DNA of 47,484 nucleotides. Origin: a virus. The notes under the pieces were generated by a model. The model saw only the letters and a program-made list of their open reading frames with translations, searched no databases and was not told where the DNA came from. This document shows, piece after piece, positions 542-47,484 of the stretch. The stretch covers positions 1 to 47,484 of the IMG/VR virus record IMGVR_UViG_3300033998_000398; one strand, 5' to 3'. A program made the position numbers and the translations under genes. Within the stretch, counting starts at the first letter, position 1; the number at the start of each line of letters is the position of its first letter.

Positions 542-1496
542 TCTCTATTCATTTTTTTTTATTCCAGTTCCCATATTCATTTTTTACCAATATCGATAAC
601 TGCAGTGGGTGTTGAACTCACCCTGGGAACTCACCCTGGGAAAGTACGGGCGGGGTTGGGGTTCGGGGCAGGGAGGCTCGGCTCCGCCTCGCCTCGGAAA
701 ATGCACCAAAATTCCCTTATATTTAAGGGGGGGGTTGACCCTCCTCGTGGGGAAAAAATTCGTACGGGTGTGGTGATGTGTTTTTTGTGTTTGGTGTTTG
801 TTTTTTTTATTGTTGTTTTTTATTTAGTATTGTTTGGTTGTTGTGTGGGGTTTGATTGTATGAGTTGATGTTGATGGGTTTTGTGGGTTGTGGTGTTTGG
901 GTTGATTGTGTGGATTATTTTGTGGATGTTTATTCTCAGTTTGATGGGTTTTGTGGTAGGTTTGGTGGTTGAGTTTCTTTGTGATTTTGGTAGGTTTGAG
1001 TTTGTGGTTTTGGGTTTTGTTGGTGGTTGGGTTCCTGGTGATGTGTTTTGGGGTTGGTTTGGTGATTGGGATGTGAGGGTTCAGGATTTTGTGTTGTGTT
1101 TGTTGTGTGTGGTGTTTGGGTGTTGGGATGATGTGCGGTTGAAGTCTGGTTTGTGTAGTCGTTTTCTGGGTGATTTGCGGGTTGGTGTGGTTCGTGGTTT
1201 GTTTGGTGATAGTTTGTTGAGTGAGTTTTATAGGGTGGATTAATCCTTTTTTTCTTTTTTTTATTTATTTCTTGGTTGTTGTATGTTTTGTTTTAGTGTT
1301 TTCTGAGTTTTTTGGTGGTTTTGTTTTGTTGTTTTGGTTTGTTGTTATTGTTTTGTTTTGTTTTATGTGGTTTGTGTGATTTGTGGGTGTTTTGGGGTAT
1401 ATGTATTGGTGTTTTCTTGATGGTTTCTTCATGGTTTTTTATTGTTTTCTTGGGATTTTTCTTGGGATTTTTTATCCTGTAATGGGGGTGGTGAGG

Positions 1497-1550
1497 GGGT
1501 GGTGGTAGGGTGGTGGTAGGGTGGTGGTAGGGTGGTGGTAGGGTGGTGGT
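1497..1550. repeat. Tandem array of 11-mer GGGTGGTGGTA (~5 copies)
   Basis: Read directly; abuts the promoter at 1554. Confidence 0.95.
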
Positions 1551-1553
1551 CGT

Positions 1554-1601
1554 ACTGTAAAGTTTATATGATTTATCTGAACTTTTTCACCTTAAGGTGA
1601 A
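1554..1601 (+). promoter_or_regulatory. Promoter (ACTGTAAAG + TTTATAT) with TGAACTTTTTCA box and perfect 16-bp palindrome TTCACCTTAAGGTGAA
   Basis: Motif conserved at several loci; palindrome at 1586-1601. Confidence 0.8.
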
Positions 1602-1650
1602 GGGGCATAACTTGGAGTCCCTCTAATAAGTGGAATGGAGTTGATACAAA

Positions 1651-1962
1651 GTGATTTATGTTGTAACCAGGCATGATGCCACTATAGAATGGATTAAGAG
1701 TATTGTTAAAGGGCGTGTTAGGGTTGTCCCACACCTTGATAATGATTGCATATTACAGATGAAACAGGGTGATATAGTATATGGGATTCTACCTATACAC
1801 CTGATTAAGAGGCTGCTGAGAAAAGGAATCACATATTATCATGTGGTTTTACCAAACATACCATTTGAGTGTAGGGGTAAAGAATTAACCCTTAGCCAGA
1901 TTAAAAAGTTCGGTGGACAGATATGGAAGATTAATAATATAGATTGTGAGATGGTGAGATGA
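1651..1962 (+). CDS. csx16: Csx16 (VVA1548)-family putative cyclic oligoadenylate ring nuclease
   Basis: Motifs TRHxxxIEW, PHLD, GDxVxGxLPxHL, YxH and PxExRGKEL in ~100 aa match the Csx16 family pattern. Confidence 0.85.
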   Translation: MIYVVTRHDATIEWIKSIVKGRVRVVPHLDNDCILQMKQGDIVYGILPIHLIKRLLRKGITYYHVVLPNIPFECRGKELTLSQIKKFGGQIWKINNIDCEMVR

Positions 1963-2103
1963 ATGGTTAGATGTACCAGTATTCATGTGGATGAGTGTGT
2001 ATTTTTTACTTGCCAGATGTATGGTGAGTGTTTTATTTACTTAAGTGATGATGAACTCAGGGATTTAGGTTTTAGTGATGATGATATAAAGAGGTGTAGG
2101 TGA
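1963..2103 (+). CDS. Small Cys/Asp-rich protein, 46 aa (MVRCTSIHVDECVFF...DDDIKRCR)
   Basis: Translated by hand; ATG directly follows the csx16 stop. Confidence 0.55.
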   Translation: MVRCTSIHVDECVFFTCQMYGECFIYLSDDELRDLGFSDDDIKRCR

Positions 2104-2172
2104 ATGTTATTCTGCCTATTTTAGAGTTGGTAGGCATTTTAGTTGTATACATTTTAGTAGGAGGTGAGTATA

Positions 2173-2250
2173 GTGGAGACTGGTGATTTCTTGGCTGGTT
2201 GTTGCTTTGGTATCATCCTGTTGGTTATTCTTTTACTACTTGGTGCTTAA
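2173..2250 (+). CDS. Small single-TM peptide, 25 aa
   Basis: RBS GGAGGTG, GTG start, hydrophobic stretch GIILLVILLLLG, followed by a T-run. Confidence 0.45.
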   Translation: METGDFLAGCCFGIILLVILLLLGA

Positions 2251-2342
2251 ATTTTTTTAAATGTAAATTATATTTTTTCCCTATTTTTCTCATCCTTGAA
2301 TATTCATATCAAGGGTGGGGGTAGGGTGGAGGTAGGTGTGAT

Positions 2343-2837
2343 ATGTTTTATGGTACTGTTGTTGGTGAAACTTATAGGGTTGAATTGGATTTGTATGATG
2401 GTGTGCCGGTGTTTATGGAAAAGGGTGGTCTTAGTGGTAGAGGTGAGCATGGTAATGTTCTTTTAATGACTGATAGTGCTGGTGGTAAAATTAAGGGTGT
2501 TTGGAGGGATACTAAGAGTAAGAGGAGTGTTGCTGAGAGGGTTAGGAGGATTCATGGTTTAGTTCATCCTGAGAGTGGTTATTATATTGTGGAGGTATCA
2601 AGGTCGTATTTTGATTTTGGTGATTGTGATGAGGAGGATGTGACACTGGTTACGATTGGTAGGGTGATGGGTGTGTATGAGTATAGTATGGAGGTTACTG
2701 TTTTGTATAGTTTTGTGTTTAATAGTGTGGATTTTGATGAGGAGGTATTGAAGATTCCTGAGTTCTTGAGGGAACCTGTTAGGGTGGCTTTTGAGAATTG
2801 TTGGAATAAGTATATTGAACCTTTGTATATTGTGTAG
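2343..2837 (+). CDS. Hypothetical early protein
   Basis: RBS GGAGGTAGGTG; protein-like composition. Confidence 0.75.
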   Translation: MFYGTVVGETYRVELDLYDGVPVFMEKGGLSGRGEHGNVLLMTDSAGGKIKGVWRDTKSKRSVAERVRRIHGLVHPESGYYIVEVSRSYFDFGDCDEEDVTLVTIGRVMGVYEYSMEVTVLYSFVFNSVDFDEEVLKIPEFLREPVRVAFENCWNKYIEPLYIV

Positions 2838-2901
2838 TTAATTTTATATACCTGGATGATTAAATAACATATTGTAAGAATTAGTAGGAGGTGGATGGAG
2901 T

Positions 2902-3072
2902 ATGCCAGAACTTGATTTCTATGCTGTAGTTAGAGGAAAATATCAGATAACAGTACCAGCAGCAGTCAGGTGGATTGAAGACATTGAAGTAGGCGATGTT
3001 GTTCATGTTACTATTGAGAAAGTGAATAAAAAAGGTGTGGATTCTGATGTGGCTGTGGCTGAAGGGAAATAA
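2902..3072 (+). CDS. AbrB/MazE/SpoVT-family DNA-binding protein, 56 aa
   Basis: Hand translation MPELDFYAVVRGKYQITVPAAVRWIEDIEVGDVVHVTIEK; QITVP..R....I..GD.V signature; RBS GGAGGTG and upstream TTTATATA. Confidence 0.8.
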   Translation: MPELDFYAVVRGKYQITVPAAVRWIEDIEVGDVVHVTIEKVNKKGVDSDVAVAEGK

Positions 3073-3161
3073 ACCACCACACCTTTAACCCTTTTTTTAT
3101 AAACCATGATTTAGGCTTGTCTAAATTTATAAAACAATTCAAATATTGAGGTGAATAAATC

Positions 3162-3758
3162 ATGGTTCCCACATTTAAAGTAAAAGATTATATAGGAATT
3201 AATGGAGTTGGACTAAACCAACTAATACACCCACATTTTGAAAAATGGTTCGATTATATAATTAATGAATATGAAAAACCAGAAAAGAATAATGTAATTT
3301 TTTTACCATGTGCTGCCATTAAACCATACAATAATTCCCCATTACATAAAAAAATAAATGAAGTTCTCTCAAAATATGAAAATAATCTACACAAAGTTGT
3401 TATTTCTAATGCAGGTATTATACCTTATGAATTTATTGAATATTATCCATTTGAATCCTATGATTGGAATCCTGCATTTGAAGACAATATTAGCAAAGAA
3501 CTATATTATAATACGACATTAGTACGATTAAGATTATTTTTAAAAACTCATAAATATAGAGAATATTTTTCTTACCTTAACCCTGATTCATTATCATTTA
3601 AAGCACTAAAAAATGCATGTAAAACATTTAATTATAATTTACATCATCCTAAAACAATTAAATTAGATTACAAAAGAAAAGACCCTGATTTACTACTTAT
3701 TCATCCTAAAAATTTAGACAATTTAGACAATTTATTAAAACAGGTGATTAAACTATGA
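3162..3758 (+). CDS. DUF5591 / archaeosine synthase (ArcS)-like protein
   Basis: FLPCAAIKPYNNSPLH matches the ArcS/DUF5591 PCxxxKPYxxSxxH motif; VISNAGIIPYE...YP...YDW also fits. Confidence 0.75.
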   Translation: MVPTFKVKDYIGINGVGLNQLIHPHFEKWFDYIINEYEKPEKNNVIFLPCAAIKPYNNSPLHKKINEVLSKYENNLHKVVISNAGIIPYEFIEYYPFESYDWNPAFEDNISKELYYNTTLVRLRLFLKTHKYREYFSYLNPDSLSFKALKNACKTFNYNLHHPKTIKLDYKRKDPDLLLIHPKNLDNLDNLLKQVIKL

Positions 3759-4681
3759 AATATTTTTTCGGTGAAACACCACAAAACCAACTAAACATAG
3801 ACCATGACATGGTAATGGATAGTGCACTATATTATTACACTAAAAAAGACCCTAAAATTAAATATAATTATAACACTCTTTTTATGGATTCAGGTGGGTA
3901 TGCTCTTATTAACAAAGATATTGACTTAGATAAGGACAGAATCCTGGATATTCAATCCTTAAATAATCCTGATTATGTAGCACCACTGGATTATCCTGCC
4001 AACCATTCATATCCTGATAGTGTTAACATTAAAAGATGGAATATTACTTTAAATAATACTGAATATTGGGTAGAAAACACTACCATGAATGTCGTGCCTG
4101 TAGTTCATGCTTGGAATTCCACAGTTCTAATTGATAATATTAAATCTTTAAGTAAATTTGATACGGAATTTATTGGAATCGGTAGAATATCCAGATCAGA
4201 TAGAATCCTCAACAAAGAATTGTTGAATAATTTGATGATAATTCTAAAGTTTTGTAAAGAAAATGGATTTAAAACTCATTTCTTTGGGTTTGGTTCATCG
4301 CCTATTACTTACCATTTAGGTGCATATATGGGTTTTACTACTACTGATTCAGTTGGATTTAAATTAAAAGCCATTAATAATAAAATTTTAATTCCTGATA
4401 TGGGGGAATGTGATGTTAATAGTCCAATAAAAAAATATAGATTGGAACAACTAAAAACTTGTGAGTGTCCTATTTGTGAAGATAAGAATATAGATGAAGT
4501 TATGATTTCTCTTAAGGAAAATTGGATTAATAGGGCTATACATAATAAATGGATTATTGATGATGCTGTCAGGAAATTTCATAGTTTTGATTGTAGAGAT
4601 GATTACAGGCTATATTTAGATGAAATTATGCAGTATTCTAATTATAAGCATATTTGGCAATATGTTTCTTATTTAATGTAA
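3755..4681 (+). CDS. tRNA-guanine transglycosylase-fold protein (TGT/DpdA-like)
   Basis: FMDSGGY, PLDYP, HFFG, TDSV and CECPIC-x21-H Zn site; overlaps the upstream stop (ATGA coupling). Confidence 0.85.
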   Translation: MKYFFGETPQNQLNIDHDMVMDSALYYYTKKDPKIKYNYNTLFMDSGGYALINKDIDLDKDRILDIQSLNNPDYVAPLDYPANHSYPDSVNIKRWNITLNNTEYWVENTTMNVVPVVHAWNSTVLIDNIKSLSKFDTEFIGIGRISRSDRILNKELLNNLMIILKFCKENGFKTHFFGFGSSPITYHLGAYMGFTTTDSVGFKLKAINNKILIPDMGECDVNSPIKKYRLEQLKTCECPICEDKNIDEVMISLKENWINRAIHNKWIIDDAVRKFHSFDCRDDYRLYLDEIMQYSNYKHIWQYVSYLM

Positions 4682-4818
4682 TTTTTTTAATGATTATTTT
4701 TCTGGTATTTATATTTGTACCCTACCCATTTTTACCCTTATTTTTTTATCCTATTTTATGAGTTTCTTTTCCTTTTTTATTGGTTGTATGGGTTTCTTTT
4801 CATGTTTAGGTATGGTCT

Positions 4819-5673: not shown

Positions 5674-5690
5674 TATATATACTTTACAGT
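5674..5690 (-). promoter_or_regulatory. Promoter-like ACTGTAAAGTATATATA facing into the repeat locus
   Basis: Same BRE-TATA string as at 175 and 1554. Confidence 0.6.
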
Positions 5691-5928: not shown

Positions 5929-6606
5929 TTACCATGGTTTGATTGTGTAGTATCCTATGTTTCTGCCGTGGGTTGCTGTGTCCATCATGTGGTAGTGGCA
6001 GGTGTAGATTCCTTTTGTTGGGTCGTATATGGTGTATTTGTCTCCTTTTATGGATTGGATTAGTGCATAATGTCCGTAGTTGTTTAGGAATCCGCTGCAG
6101 TGTGCGGCTTTTGTTTCATAGTGGGTTATGACTGCTTCGTAATTGTATAGTGCTTTCTGGACTGCTTCTTTGTTTCTGGGTATCCTGTTTATTGTTATTT
6201 TTAGTTTGTAGGCATTTTTCATCATTTTTTCTGGGCTTGTACCGTTTTTTGTTGTGCCTATTAGTTTGGCGATTTCTTTTTCTTCTGTGTATTTGAAGAA
6301 TTTGGTTAGTGCCATGCTTATGCTGGTTGGGCAACAGGTGTAGGGTGTTGTCTGGTATTTTAGGATGGTGGGTTCGTTTCTTTTCAGATTAACTGTGGCA
6401 TAATTTGGGTATCTGCCTTTATGATATCGGAAATTGTAGATTGTGTGGAATAGTCCTGAGTATTCCAGTGGTGTTAGTCTGATTTTGTTTTTTCCTCTGT
6501 TGATGTCTGCATAGTTGGGTAGTCTTTTGTTGGTTTTGATGAATTTGTGGATGTTTTCTTCTATTTTTTGGATTTCTTCTTTTGTGATTCGTATCATATT
6601 TTTCAC
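5929..6606 (-). CDS. Endolysin: pseudomurein-binding repeats plus C39-like cysteine peptidase (pseudomurein endoisopeptidase-like)
   Basis: Two KRLPNYA/GRYPNYA repeats; QTTPYTCCPTS (Cys), GHY (His), IYDP (Asp). Confidence 0.85.
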   Translation of the reverse strand: MKNMIRITKEEIQKIEENIHKFIKTNKRLPNYADINRGKNKIRLTPLEYSGLFHTIYNFRYHKGRYPNYATVNLKRNEPTILKYQTTPYTCCPTSISMALTKFFKYTEEKEIAKLIGTTKNGTSPEKMMKNAYKLKITINRIPRNKEAVQKALYNYEAVITHYETKAAHCSGFLNNYGHYALIQSIKGDKYTIYDPTKGIYTCHYHMMDTATHGRNIGYYTIKPW

Positions 6607-26163: not shown

Positions 26164-26189
26164 AGTTATAAGTTATAAGTTATAAGTTA
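26164..26189. repeat. (GTTATAA)n heptamer repeat, 3.5 copies
   Basis: Read directly; overlaps the TerL stop. Confidence 0.9.
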
Positions 26190-27566
26190 GAAATTGTGAC
26201 TATTAAGATAGGCATATCTGTCAAAATTAGTTATATTCTGTTTCTCCATCCCAGTAAGGTAATTGTAACCCATTGCTGTAGCGTCCACCTGGTCATCATG
26301 ACTACACTGGTCTGGAATAAAATTATCAAATTCCTCCAAGAAATCCCTTGTCCACTTACCAGGGAATATCTTCACTTTACCAGTCTCCACAGCACTGGAC
26401 AATGGAAAAGCTCTTTTCTCCTTAGATTGTGAAGGAAACATCCAAGCTACAGCATGATTAGATAGTAATGAAGTAAAATTAGATTTCATAATAGTACCAG
26501 CAACACCTGGCTGCTGTTCAAATAATTGTATAGTACCGTAAGGGTCGGAATCCGCTACTTCCTTGATTTTCTTCTCCATCTTAGCGGGTGTAGTTCTGAA
26601 CCGTACAACATCTCTGATGTATATACTGCCGTGTTCATCCATCTCCATAAGGACACCTACGGTATAGTCAGGGTCTTCAGATGTGTCACCTACTACACCA
26701 AAATCCCAAGCCCTTACCCTTTTAATGATTTTACCTTCAACATTATTTGTCTCTATAAAATTGCCACTATAGAACATCCCACCCTCTTTGAGTCGTGGGT
26801 CTTGCATATAGAGGCAATTAAACCAGAAATCACCTATTGTTTTCTTGATTTCATGCATACGCTTAGTACTGAATCGCTCTTCCCACACTGAATTACCATT
26901 TTCATCAAGTGCGGGGTATATGAGAGTGTGCCAGTCCTCAATATCCTCCTGTAACAGTTGTCCTGTTAAATCATCCACACTCCACCTGGTCTGTATAAGT
27001 ATGAGTACTCCATCTGGTTCCAGTCGGGTGTAAGCGGTGGAGTCGAACCAGTCTCTTATTGCCTGTTTCCTTGCAGGGCTAAGTGCCTCCTCAGCGTTCT
27101 TAATAGGGTCGTCGATTATCAGGACATCGGCACCTCTACCAGTAATTGAACCACCAACACCTGCAGTGTTCATGCCACCCAGATGATTTTTAATATCCCA
27201 TGAGTTTTTTGCTTTACTTTTCTTATTTACATGTATATCCCAGTATTTTCCATATTCATCCACTATATCCCTGGCTTTCATACCAAAACTGGCAGCAAAA
27301 TTGGCTTCATAAGATGTGAATAGTACCCTATGGTCTGGTTTGTTAATCAGGTACCAGGCTGGGAATATTGTGGATGTGGTTAGGCTTTTACCGAACCTTG
27401 GAGGCATATTAATAACTAACCTTTTGATTTCACCATTCAATATACCTCTAAAAGCCTCTGCAATCTCTAATAGGTGGGGTGCAAATTTGTATTTGGGGTA
27501 TACGAATTTGGCAAATGATGGGAAATGTGCTTTAATAATGGCAAGTTCTTTCTGTGTCAGTGGCAT
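26187..27566 (-). CDS. terL: Terminase large subunit
   Basis: MPPRFGKS Walker A, LIIDDP Walker B, AWDFG and HDDQVDA nuclease motifs. Confidence 0.95.
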   Translation of the reverse strand: MPLTQKELAIIKAHFPSFAKFVYPKYKFAPHLLEIAEAFRGILNGEIKRLVINMPPRFGKSLTTSTIFPAWYLINKPDHRVLFTSYEANFAASFGMKARDIVDEYGKYWDIHVNKKSKAKNSWDIKNHLGGMNTAGVGGSITGRGADVLIIDDPIKNAEEALSPARKQAIRDWFDSTAYTRLEPDGVLILIQTRWSVDDLTGQLLQEDIEDWHTLIYPALDENGNSVWEERFSTKRMHEIKKTIGDFWFNCLYMQDPRLKEGGMFYSGNFIETNNVEGKIIKRVRAWDFGVVGDTSEDPDYTVGVLMEMDEHGSIYIRDVVRFRTTPAKMEKKIKEVADSDPYGTIQLFEQQPGVAGTIMKSNFTSLLSNHAVAWMFPSQSKEKRAFPLSSAVETGKVKIFPGKWTRDFLEEFDNFIPDQCSHDDQVDATAMGYNYLTGMEKQNITNFDRYAYLNSHNF

Positions 27567-30061: not shown

Positions 30062-30093
30062 AAGTTATAAGTTATAAGTTATAAGTTATAAGT
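30062..30093. repeat. (AAGTTAT)n heptamer repeat, 4.5 copies
   Basis: Read directly. Confidence 0.9.
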
Positions 30094-44341: not shown

Positions 44342-44434
44342 TTATTTTAGTAGAACAGCAATTATCATTAGGATTATTACTGTAGAGGACACTATAATGT
44401 TATTCCAGTTAACCCCCAGATTATCCCATCTCAT
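44342..44434 (-). CDS. Small single-TM peptide, 30 aa (MRWDNLGVNWNNIIVSSTVIILMIIAVLLK)
   Basis: Hand translation; fills the gap exactly, stop adjoins the next RBS. Confidence 0.45.
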   Translation of the reverse strand: MRWDNLGVNWNNIIVSSTVIILMIIAVLLK

Positions 44435-44765
44435 CATCCAACACCTTTATGAATTTTGGGTCTACCATGAAATAAATACCGTAACTCATGGTGTAATAGG
44501 CTAAACCAATAATTTTACCATCATTCACCAATTCACCCCATAGGAAATCTTTTATCCTGTCAAGGTGGTCTGGTGAGAATTCATCATCGCTTATCACTCT
44601 ATCACATTCAGGTGAAATCATGTAAAAGAATTCACTGAGTGTAAAAGATTCCTTTAAGACATCCTCTATCCTCTTAAGTTTATCCTGTGTTAAATAAAAG
44701 TTGATGTCAGGGTAATCATAGAATCTGATTAGCCCTGATGGTAAAACCTCAGTTTTCCATTTCAT
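44421..44765 (-). CDS. Acidic hypothetical early protein
   Basis: First gene after the 44792-44829 promoter; RBS GGAGGT. Confidence 0.75.
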   Translation of the reverse strand: MKWKTEVLPSGLIRFYDYPDINFYLTQDKLKRIEDVLKESFTLSEFFYMISPECDRVISDDEFSPDHLDRIKDFLWGELVNDGKIIGLAYYTMSYGIYFMVDPKFIKVLDDEMG

Positions 44766-44791: not shown

Positions 44792-44829
44792 TGAAAAAAT
44801 TCAAAACACTCATATATACCTTACGGTTC
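44792..44829 (-). promoter_or_regulatory. Promoter ACCGTAAGG-TATATATG with TGAATTTTTTCA box
   Basis: Near-identical to the 45826-45863 copy. Confidence 0.8.
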
Positions 44830-45295: not shown

Positions 45296-45799
45296 TCACC
45301 CCTTTTCAAGTTTGAACCATTCAGTTTCATTGAATGGTACAGCAACACAATCAACGATTTCATTATTTATATCTGTGAAGAAAACCACTCCAGCATATTC
45401 AGCCGTATCCAAATTCACTTCAAGGAGACCTAAATCATCTAAATCATCTCCAGCATACCATTCACAATCACAAACCTTATTCTCTCTCACAAACTCTATT
45501 ATACTTTTAAAGAGGCTTGCTGGTGCCCCAACACTCCATTTTTTATTGTCATATACAGTGAGAGTGTTCATGAATAACATTCCAAGTCTCTCTTTATCCT
45601 CATCCTTAACAAAGAATGAGGTTTCAGCGTAATCCTCATTATCTATATCGCTCCACCCTTCAAACTTATAATTATACCTCCTTATCCTAACTACCCAGTC
45701 AAAATTCTTCATCCTGGGTGCAGGTATAAATTCCATTTCAAGTCCGTACTGCAGGTACCCATCTATACTATAAATCATATCCAGTTTTTCTTCAACCAT
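45296..45799 (-). CDS. Acidic hypothetical early protein
   Basis: First gene after the 45826-45863 promoter; RBS GGAGGT. Confidence 0.75.
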   Translation of the reverse strand: MVEEKLDMIYSIDGYLQYGLEMEFIPAPRMKNFDWVVRIRRYNYKFEGWSDIDNEDYAETSFFVKDEDKERLGMLFMNTLTVYDNKKWSVGAPASLFKSIIEFVRENKVCDCEWYAGDDLDDLGLLEVNLDTAEYAGVVFFTDINNEIVDCVAVPFNETEWFKLEKG

Positions 45800-45825: not shown

Positions 45826-45863
45826 TGAAAAAGTTCAAAACACCCATATATAAACCTTACGGT
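45826..45863 (-). promoter_or_regulatory. Promoter ACCGTAAGG-TTTATATATG with TGAACTTTTTCA box
   Basis: Conserved motif family. Confidence 0.8.
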
Positions 45864-46391: not shown

Positions 46392-46460
46392 TCAGATTCA
46401 TTCCGTGTACCCAGGTTCACTTGAACCGGTACTTTTATATGGGGGTCTTGAACTTTTTCA
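46392..46460 (+). promoter_or_regulatory. 26-bp upstream element + TTTTATAT + TGAACTTTTTCA box
   Basis: 26-mer duplicated at 145-170; box shared with the other early promoters. Confidence 0.75.
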
Positions 46461-46506
46461 CATTAGAGTGAGGGGACACAAGTCCCAACAAGTGAGGTGA
46501 TTAGAA

Positions 46507-46803
46507 ATGGAGATACAAGTATATGAGACTGAGACAGGAAAAGGATGCCACATAGTGGAAATACAGGCAGAGGATAAACATATAATCGTATATCTTGCCT
46601 GCGAAGATGAACTATACGACTTACTACAGAGACTGCCTGATATCTACAGTGTTCTACGTTTCTTAGAGAATCTGGCAGATGACATAATGACTGACATAAA
46701 CTATCATCGTGTTGTTGAATTCATGCGCGAACATAAAAAGACAGCCTGCAGAGTTTTAATTAGAAATCAGGGGTTCTATGCATTAGAACCAATAAACCTA
46801 TAA
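46507..46803 (+). CDS. Hypothetical early protein, paralog of 42604..42960
   Basis: RBS GAGGTG; alignment by eye. Confidence 0.8.
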   Translation: MEIQVYETETGKGCHIVEIQAEDKHIIVYLACEDELYDLLQRLPDIYSVLRFLENLADDIMTDINYHRVVEFMREHKKTACRVLIRNQGFYALEPINL

Positions 46804-47350: not shown

Positions 47351-47484
47351 GGTGTTGGTGCCTGGTGTTGGTGCCTGGTGTTGGTGCCTGGTGTTGGTGC
47401 CTGGTGTTGGTGCCTGGTGTTGGTGCCTGGTGTTGGTGCCTGGTGTTGGTGCCTGGTGTTGGTGCCTGGTTTTGGTGCCTGGTG
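47351..47484. repeat. Tandem array of 13-mer GGTGTTGGTGCCT (~10 units, one GGTTTT variant), right end
   Basis: Read directly. Confidence 0.97.

Follow-up and report, generated by a model that had tools for sequence, protein, structure and literature searches.

A stand-alone Csx16 in a tailed methanogen virus, a putative anti-CRISPR ring nuclease of an already recognised kind

The csx16 gene and its product

The locus considered here lies near one end of a viral genome, IMG/VR record IMGVR_UViG_3300033998_000398, the whole 47,484-nt stretch of which was analysed and is referred to below as the window. A gene on the plus strand at positions 1651-1962, csx16, begins with GTG, ends with TGA and encodes 103 amino acids that are predicted, from their sequence, to form a cA4 ring nuclease. 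A ribosome-binding site, GGAG, can be read from the sequence at 1637-1640 (+), 10 nt 5' of the GTG codon, and, because ATG occupies this codon in a 95%-identical relative, the start of the gene appears to be well placed. In a Pfam scan, the protein matched PF09652 (Cas_VVA1548) with an E value of 1e-24 and 86.9 bits over profile positions 1-89 of 91, against a curated cut-off of 25 bits, whilst the NCBIfam model TIGR02620 (Csx16) matched it with 56.3 bits, against a curated cut-off of 46.35 bits. When the window's own record was searched with PF09652, a match of 86.2 bits was returned. A comparison with these two models had been proposed in a first-pass annotation of the sequence, and the protein passes both. 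The same annotation had placed the family apart from that of the viral ring nuclease AcrIII-1 (DUF1874), and this separation is upheld by the Pfam scan, which at E values of up to 1 yielded PF09652 alone and no membership of DUF1874. No family for this protein is held in PHROGs. Csx20, Crn1, Crn3/Csx3, Csx15 and Crn4 are also small regulators of type III systems that bind or cleave cyclic oligoadenylate (cOA), one of which, Csx20, occurs in a few phages too, but these belong to other sequence families and none of them was matched by the csx16 product in the Pfam and NCBIfam scans.

Conservation was read from a family alignment of 80 sequences, composed of the window protein and 79 relatives drawn from 588 matches (E ≤ 0.001) among 1.84 billion cluster representatives; most of those representatives that fall outside the viral group described below share 25-45% identity with the window protein. 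All nine near-invariant columns of this alignment (R7, H8, G45, L47, P48, R75, G76, E78 and L79) are kept in the window protein, as are W14, H28, G40-D41, G59, P71 and E73, and K77 is also present. Over the 75 relatives outside the viral clade, R7, H8, G45, P48, R75, G76, E78 and L79 are invariant or near-invariant, and again every one of these is retained. The three motifs of Csx16, TRH near the N-terminus, GD.V.G.LP and RGKEL, are likewise all present, such that the complete motif set noted on first reading is borne out, where 'complete' refers to conserved positions and not to catalytic residues defined by mutagenesis. The protein departs from the consensus solely at positions 10 and 11, with A10 and T11 in place of the G-A that is usual in the family, and these substitutions are common to about a quarter of the family. 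As far as can be judged from these comparisons, the reading frame is an intact, full-length and true Csx16. Elsewhere in the family, tandem-duplicated two-domain forms of ~205-230 amino acids (P0005-P0008, P0012, P0023, P0036 and P0100) and long fusions to other domains, of ~525-690 amino acids (P0028, P0050, P0141, P0142 and P0146), are also found.

The substitutions at positions 10-11 bear on how the protein would deal with its ligand. An enzyme of this family could in principle act as a sponge that, in the way reported for Csx15, binds cA4 tightly and sequesters it whilst turning over little or none of it. Whether a protein binds its ligand or also cleaves it cannot be told from sequence alone, and the viral clade carries its A-T, in place of G-A, next to the invariant R7-H8 pair. 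However, the strictly conserved polar residues R7, H8, R75 and E78 are all kept, Csx16 proper is a fast cA4 nuclease (PMC12409355) and sequestration has been argued to be a poor strategy for an anti-CRISPR, with Csx15 absent from phages (PMC13148439). A sponge is therefore considered unlikely here, and cleavage of cA4 is the preferred reading.

The gene is also under selective constraint. A csx16 copy that is 95% identical to that of the window is present in four independent Logan contigs (L004-L007), and comparison of the two gives a dN of 0.025 and a dS of 0.26-0.28; the resulting dN/dS of ~0.09 indicates purifying selection. Constraint of this strength argues against csx16 being a passenger gene, one that currently has no role or whose role is unrelated to nucleotide signalling, as does its retention in at least three virus lineages and its possession of a putative regulated promoter of its own. 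The generic nature of the fold matches (see below) would suit a passenger, yet we hold this explanation to be highly improbable.

A promoter and operator module upstream of csx16

Approximately 80 nt 5' of csx16, at 1554-1569 (+), lies an archaeal BRE/TATA-like motif, ACTGTAAAGTTTATAT, which is a putative promoter. Within the window, ACYGTAARGTNTATAT is found in five copies (175+, 1554+, 5690-, 44827- and 45863-), compared with none in 30 shuffles. The motif is followed by two operator-like palindromes that overlap one another, TGAACTTTTTCA at 1578-1589 (+) and a perfect 16-bp palindrome, TTCACCTTAAGGTGAA, at 1586-1601 (+). Together these begin 9 nt after the TATA box, at the position where transcription is expected to start. 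The first ORF 3' of the motif and of the palindromes at 1578-1601 is csx16, with no other ORF between it and the 1554-1601 module, in agreement with the earlier description of the gene as placed first behind a promoter and operator.

This arrangement recurs elsewhere in the window. A near-identical TGAAYTTTTTCAC...GTGA module follows a TATA box at 44792-44803 (-), 45826-45837 (-) and 46449-46460 (+). The sibling promoter and operator modules at 44792-44827 (-) and 45826-45863 (-) stand in front of genes at 44421-44765 and 45296-45799, respectively, whilst a TATA-like box with its operator module at 46434-46475 (+) precedes a gene at 46507-46803; no Pfam family was found for any of these genes. 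From the shared promoter/operator module, csx16 would be the first ORF in one of four seemingly co-regulated units and, if the map is circular, these four units cluster around the tandem array in which the record begins and ends. The products of 44421-44765, 45296-45799 and 46507-46803 are candidates for co-regulated early or anti-defence functions. Copies of the BRE/TATA motif that are not accompanied by the operator module are located at 175-190 and 5675-5690.

The region that precedes the csx16 promoter is of unusual composition. Between 600 and 1550 the sequence is T/G-rich, with a GC skew of +0.45, and holds only low-complexity hydrophobic ORFs. At its 3' end, directly 5' of the promoter, is an 11-bp G-rich tandem array (GGGTGGTGGTA, 5.9 copies, 1486-1550), and an origin or an element that forms G-quadruplexes may be located here.

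Genes downstream of csx16

The csx16 stop codon is abutted by a 46-aa Cys/Asp-rich ORF at 1963-2103 (+), for which no Pfam family was found above cut-off and which is doubtful or dispensable. This ORF was considered as a conserved partner of csx16 and rejected, since a deletion leaves only 9 of its codons in the 95%-identical relatives L004-L007 and it shares no similarity with the 46-aa ORF that lies behind csx16 in L008. Further downstream on the plus strand are a gene for a 164-aa protein without known family (2343-2837), a weakly AbrB/MazE-like 56-aa ORF (2902-3072), whose MazE_antitoxin match of 20.3 bits falls under the cut-off of 24.7, a DUF5591 ArcS-like gene (3162-3758; Pfam 1.5e-14) and a TGT/DpdA-like gene (3755-4681; Pfam TGT 2.8e-06), the last two of which overlap. 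The order of the genes across 2343-4681 is conserved in L004-L007, and they are treated here as the context of csx16, lying outside the gene itself. A DpdA gene, together with N6/N4 methyltransferases, is also found near another Csx16 in a virus-like contig (L025:2732-3580).

The viral genome and its host

The 47,484-bp record is classed as linear by IMG/VR, with a CheckV completeness of 55%. Both its start (1-99) and its end (47351-47484) lie within the same 13-bp tandem array (GGTGTTGGTGCCT, 7.6 and 10.3 copies), on which basis the record is probably a near-complete genome that closes on itself. The linear class and the completeness value are likely to be underestimates, the latter probably reflecting the small number of reference genomes rather than missing DNA. 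The array itself may be a packaging site, an origin or a telomere-like end.

Judged by its gene content, the record is that of a tailed virus. It encodes a large terminase (26187-27566), a small terminase, a portal protein and a tail-tube or minor tail protein, along with a family B DNA polymerase (PolB), NrdD, dCTP deaminase, thymidylate synthase, dUTPase, an HNH endonuclease, a ParB-like protein, a metallophosphatase and a zinc-ribbon protein (260-541). In its endolysin (5929-6606, -), a C39-type peptidase domain is accompanied by a pseudomurein-binding repeat, which points to a pseudomurein-walled methanogen as host, most readily one of the Methanobacteriales, although the Methanopyrales are formally possible, and which lends support to the original attribution of the sequence to a methanogen virus. 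Among the window ORFs scanned (those of at least 90 aa), no cas family other than Csx16 was found; a search for repeats in the 47.5-kb record revealed no CRISPR-like array, nor was the type III locus context usual for Csx16 encountered there. As the record most likely closes on itself, the first-pass statement that the genome holds neither cas genes nor a CRISPR array anywhere is a fair one.

A number of other properties of the genome were recorded. The avoidance of 4-bp palindromes is extreme (GATC 1, CTAG 0, GGCC 1, ACGT 5, AGCT 16, CGCG 2, GCGC 5 and CCGG 13, compared with 57-155 expected from base composition), and GTAC, CATG and TGCA show no depletion in the window; this avoidance suggests strong restriction-modification pressure. 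Tandem arrays of 7 bp (AGTTATA / AAGTTAT) are located at 26164-26189 and 30062-30093, at boundaries between gene blocks of the late region. When words sampled from 1400-4700 were sought in sequencing runs, 96-100% of them were present in three runs that one study had made from subsurface metagenomes, two of these being possibly the source runs. One further run of that study held 29-70% of the words, and this range also covers metagenome runs of five other studies, labelled as mixed culture, bioreactor or anaerobic digester and in one case unlabelled. Two RNA runs held only ~5-6% of the words and are uninformative as to expression.

Predicted structure of Csx16

An AlphaFold2 model of the window protein, built from the 80-row alignment, has a mean pLDDT of 95.9 and is composed of five strands that alternate with helices. 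As modelled, the fold agrees with the derived Rossmann/CARF-like topology that has been ascribed to Csx16 (PMC12409355). When two copies were predicted together, a symmetric homodimer was obtained with a score of 0.54, the best of three controls scoring 0.04; of proteins with solved structures, 20 of 30 that form same-chain pairs attain this mark, as does 1 of 23 that are single chains, although these counts apply only roughly here, since our own alignment was supplied for the prediction. Contacts agree to at least 90% between dimer runs and the partner pLDDT is at least 80. The predicted interface is formed by the C-terminal strand (residues 89-103) together with residues 46 and 48-50 and abuts the invariant G45-L47-P48, an arrangement that would be expected if the conserved face were a shared ligand site on the two-fold axis. 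The dimer is, in all of this, a prediction and not a measurement.

Searches that began from the model returned matches of a general kind. Foldseek found nothing at E ≤ 0.001, its weak rows including the CARF domains of Cad1 and the Crn1 enzyme Sso2081. VIA-align gave generic alpha/beta matches, Rossmann-like or flavodoxin-like, the best with a Z score of 7.3, and aligned 88 residues with the CARF domain of Can1 (Z 4.9, rmsd 3.2). A search of the PDB by sequence yielded no solved structure that matches Csx16, and a search of the Atlas re-found Csx16 clusters only. Given that none of these structural searches gave a sharper assignment, membership of the Csx16 family rests on sequence.

Relatives and phylogeny of viral Csx16

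Only two GenBank phage records contain Csx16 matches to the window protein, those of Methanobacterium viruses PhiF3 (45% identity) and Drs3 (36%), and in both cases the gene (QGZ14607.1 and AXN53384.1, respectively) is already annotated as Csx16 / Cas_VVA1548. A published survey located Csx16 in 2 of 28,114 phage genomes (PMC12409355), which are presumably these same two viruses. In an earlier survey of archaeal tailed viruses, Drs3 among them, no clear homologues of anti-CRISPRs were reported (PMC8651126), although this predates the biochemistry of Csx16. The window gene and those of Drs3 and PhiF3 have much in common, as each is a stand-alone gene of similar length, situated near a genome end with a TATA-like sequence just upstream, in a tailed virus of Methanobacteriales, Drs3 and PhiF3 being isolates. 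They differ in sequence, to the extent given above, and in the size of the genome that carries them, which is 47 kb for the window compared with ~32-37 kb.

Four more viral contigs with Csx16 (L013-L016) were found in IMG/VR, whereas querying viral contigs with the single protein revealed no related loci. Two of the IMG/VR relatives are genomes of ~36 kb, complete or near-complete, with Csx16 proteins that are 64% and 58% identical to that of the window. Both encode a PeiW-like pseudomurein endoisopeptidase that is 50-54% identical to that of PhiF3. In the IMG/VR relatives, matches to the PMBR HMM were sub-threshold, and no endolysin in L015 or L016 matched the PeiW-like endoisopeptidase used as query. 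Methanogen viruses that bear Csx16 thus display two solutions to wall lysis, a C39 peptidase with a pseudomurein-binding repeat in the window and a PeiW-like endoisopeptidase in the PhiF3-like genomes. The large terminase of the window is only distantly related to those of the ~36-kb viruses, with 32% identity over a partial stretch, and the window therefore represents a lineage different from that of the PhiF3-like IMG/VR genomes. Set against 58-64% identity between the Csx16 proteins, this divergence indicates that csx16 has been kept across distinct virus lineages.

The surroundings of other relatives were read where contigs allowed. P0003 (48% identity) is located on contigs with a PMBR/C39 endolysin, RecT and thymidylate synthase. 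Virus-like or mobile genetic element (MGE)-like contigs without cas genes also carry P0010 (with an integrase and a methyltransferase), P0014 (with an HTH/S24 repressor), P0015 (with DpdA, methyltransferases and a terminase-like gene) and P0108 (with Hjc, PD-(D/E)XK and glycosyltransferase genes). The short contigs of P0013 contain no cas genes, but since none of their ORFs has a Pfam hit this context is uninformative. All of the close relatives with a readable context are thus in virus or MGE-like contigs without cas genes, whereas a distant control, P0056, adjoins cas2.

In a careful maximum-likelihood tree of 78 rows, the window protein is located in a clade of 19 rows, supported at 99/92, that includes PhiF3, L013, L014 and L015. 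Those members of the clade whose context can be placed are all in viruses of Methanobacteriales, the exception in name being P0162, a 115-aa Csx16 named from Methanothermobacter thermautotrophicus (NCBI). This protein is 59% identical to that of the window and nested deep in the clade; as the sole copy there from a host genome, it looks virus-derived. The Drs3 copy and L016 fall outside the clade and group, with poor resolution, together with copies named from genomes of Methanomicrobiales and Methanomassiliicoccales. From the viral context of the placeable members, with P0162 nested among them, it follows that csx16 has long been resident in viruses. Judging from the tree and the terminases, this Csx16 lineage spans at least two unrelated tailed-virus lineages of Methanobacteriales.

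These relationships alter part of the original interpretation, according to which csx16 is a host off-switch that was captured by the virus. A phylogeny that set the viral gene against Csx16 from cas loci had been suggested as a check, and it does give the window copy a well-supported place among proteins that, wherever their context can be placed, are viral. It lends no support to a recent capture of the gene from a host cas locus, the close relatives with readable context being viral or MGE-like and devoid of cas genes.

The position of P0162 also touches on the lifestyle in which csx16 is employed. In a temperate or chronic association, Csx16 could act as a dampener that benefits virus and host alike, preventing the self-targeting toxicity or abortive dormancy that leaky viral transcripts would otherwise provoke. 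A copy named from M. thermautotrophicus within the viral clade would fit a provirus or a domesticated remnant, and the published Anaerodiviridae can include temperate members (PMC8651126). However, no integrase family was found in the window, and the mechanism would be the same degradation of cA4, with the ecological framing alone set apart. We judge a dampener of this sort to be very unlikely, and an anti-CRISPR that acts on behalf of the virus remains the favoured interpretation.

The viral clade is further distinguished by invariant residues of its own, T11, M37, Y44, H50 and Y62-Y63. A scan for clade-specific motifs across 185,579 species-representative genomes returned one distant Chloroflexi copy only and missed the P0162 copy; as such a scan depends on exact patterns, it is weak evidence of absence. 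The separate position of the clade on the tree and its private invariants could be taken to mean that the same fold has been turned to a shifted target, be it cA3, cA6, signals of the CBASS or Thoeris type, another nucleotide or a cOA pathway unconnected with CRISPR. A host with type III signalling is, after all, presumed, and Crn4 illustrates that ring nucleases can be broad-spectrum (PMC12830947). Nevertheless, the conserved motifs that face the ligand are unchanged, nothing independent points to another signal and the published Csx16 is specific for cA4 even at a tenfold higher concentration of enzyme (PMC12409355). A change of target is consequently regarded as quite unlikely, and cA4 is retained as the expected substrate.

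Proposed function

What is known of the activity of Csx16 comes from copies of cellular type III loci, 68 of which were found to contain it, and it is copies of this cellular kind that were tested in vitro (PMC12409355). The purified enzyme degrades cA4 fully and leaves cA3 and cA6 uncut (Hoikkala et al. 2025, PMC12409355), and the ring nucleases of that data set co-occur with cA4-dependent effectors only (PMC12409355). In a further study from the same laboratory, Csx16 is listed among the cA4-specific ring nucleases, and viral ring nucleases are described as acting as anti-CRISPRs (PMC13148439). The first-pass assignment of a ring-nuclease activity on cyclic oligoadenylate therefore has an experimental footing in the family, but the range of substrates put forward for assay, which took in cA3 and cA6, is wider than that of the published enzyme. 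As to the host, M. thermautotrophicus is listed with type I-B, III-A and III-C systems (review table, PMC7694759), which makes type III signalling plausible in the host order.

In comparison with cellular Csx16, the window copy is alike in matching the two curated HMMs, in its length of ~100 amino acids, in its TRH, GD.V.G.LP and RGKEL motifs, in belonging to a Rossmann/CARF-like fold class and in its predicted dimeric state. It differs in being a viral gene that lacks cas neighbours and has a BRE/TATA promoter and operator of its own, and in belonging to a separate clade. Anti-CRISPRs are encoded by viruses or MGEs, and the terminase, tail, portal and endolysin genes of the IMG/VR record place csx16 in a virus.

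A pathway consistent with these features can be proposed. Transcription of csx16 would probably be driven from the virus's own BRE/TATA promoter and gated by the palindromic operator that is common to three other promoters. On detecting viral RNA, the type III Cas10 of the host would produce cA4, which a Csx16 homodimer would then destroy by cleaving it to linear products. Effectors that are activated by cA4, such as Csx1, Can1/2, Cam1 and similar proteins, would never be switched on and infection would proceed. Family membership, intactness, purifying selection, viral context, the lack of cas genes and the conserved promoter/operator module are directly supported; cleavage of cA4 by this particular copy, its timing and its effect on immunity are what we infer. 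The job so proposed is that of AcrIII-1 (Crn2, DUF1874), namely the destruction of cA4 by a small dimeric enzyme of viral origin, by which type III effectors are blinded. The families are, however, unrelated, and AcrIII-1 is an experimentally proven anti-CRISPR (Athukoralage et al. 2020, as cited in PMC12409355), whereas the role of the window Csx16 is a predicted one.

As first suggested from the sequence, inhibition of type III CRISPR immunity through cOA degradation is the most economical reading of a true Csx16 found by itself in a virus whose methanogen host has a pseudomurein wall. On balance, we consider it rather probable that the window encodes a functional, dimeric Csx16 that cleaves the cA4 made by host Cas10 and so serves as an anti-CRISPR ring nuclease in the manner of AcrIII-1, from another family.

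Implications

The novelty that was implied when this gene was first noticed does not survive comparison with the literature, in which the activity of Csx16 and its presence in two phage genomes have been published (PMC12409355), the genes of Drs3 and PhiF3 being annotated in GenBank besides. Most likely, the window Csx16 is a putative anti-CRISPR of an already recognised kind that involves no new mechanism and, as the idea is already in print, together with the family's enzymology and its occurrence in phages, the gain is incremental. What is new here is a defined viral clade of Csx16 that extends across virus lineages and offers a source of candidates for assay.

A more far-reaching model, which we put forward tentatively and hold to be appreciably less probable than not, is that Csx16 is a long-standing, virus-resident anti-CRISPR family that has been exchanged between unrelated archaeal virus lineages. 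In the window, it would form part of a four-promoter regulon defined by the shared TGAAYTTTTTCAC...GTGA operator, whose family-less genes (44421-44765, 45296-45799, 46507-46803 and 2343-2837) would be new archaeal anti-defence genes placed under a common Aca-like switch. The promoter/operator signature could be used to flag more anti-defence genes in methanogen viruses.

If the protein is active, viral Csx16 would become the second family of ring nucleases, after AcrIII-1, to be used as an anti-CRISPR. It would also be the first anti-CRISPR tied to the viruses of methanogens, organisms that matter for biogas, for rumen methane and in the subsurface.
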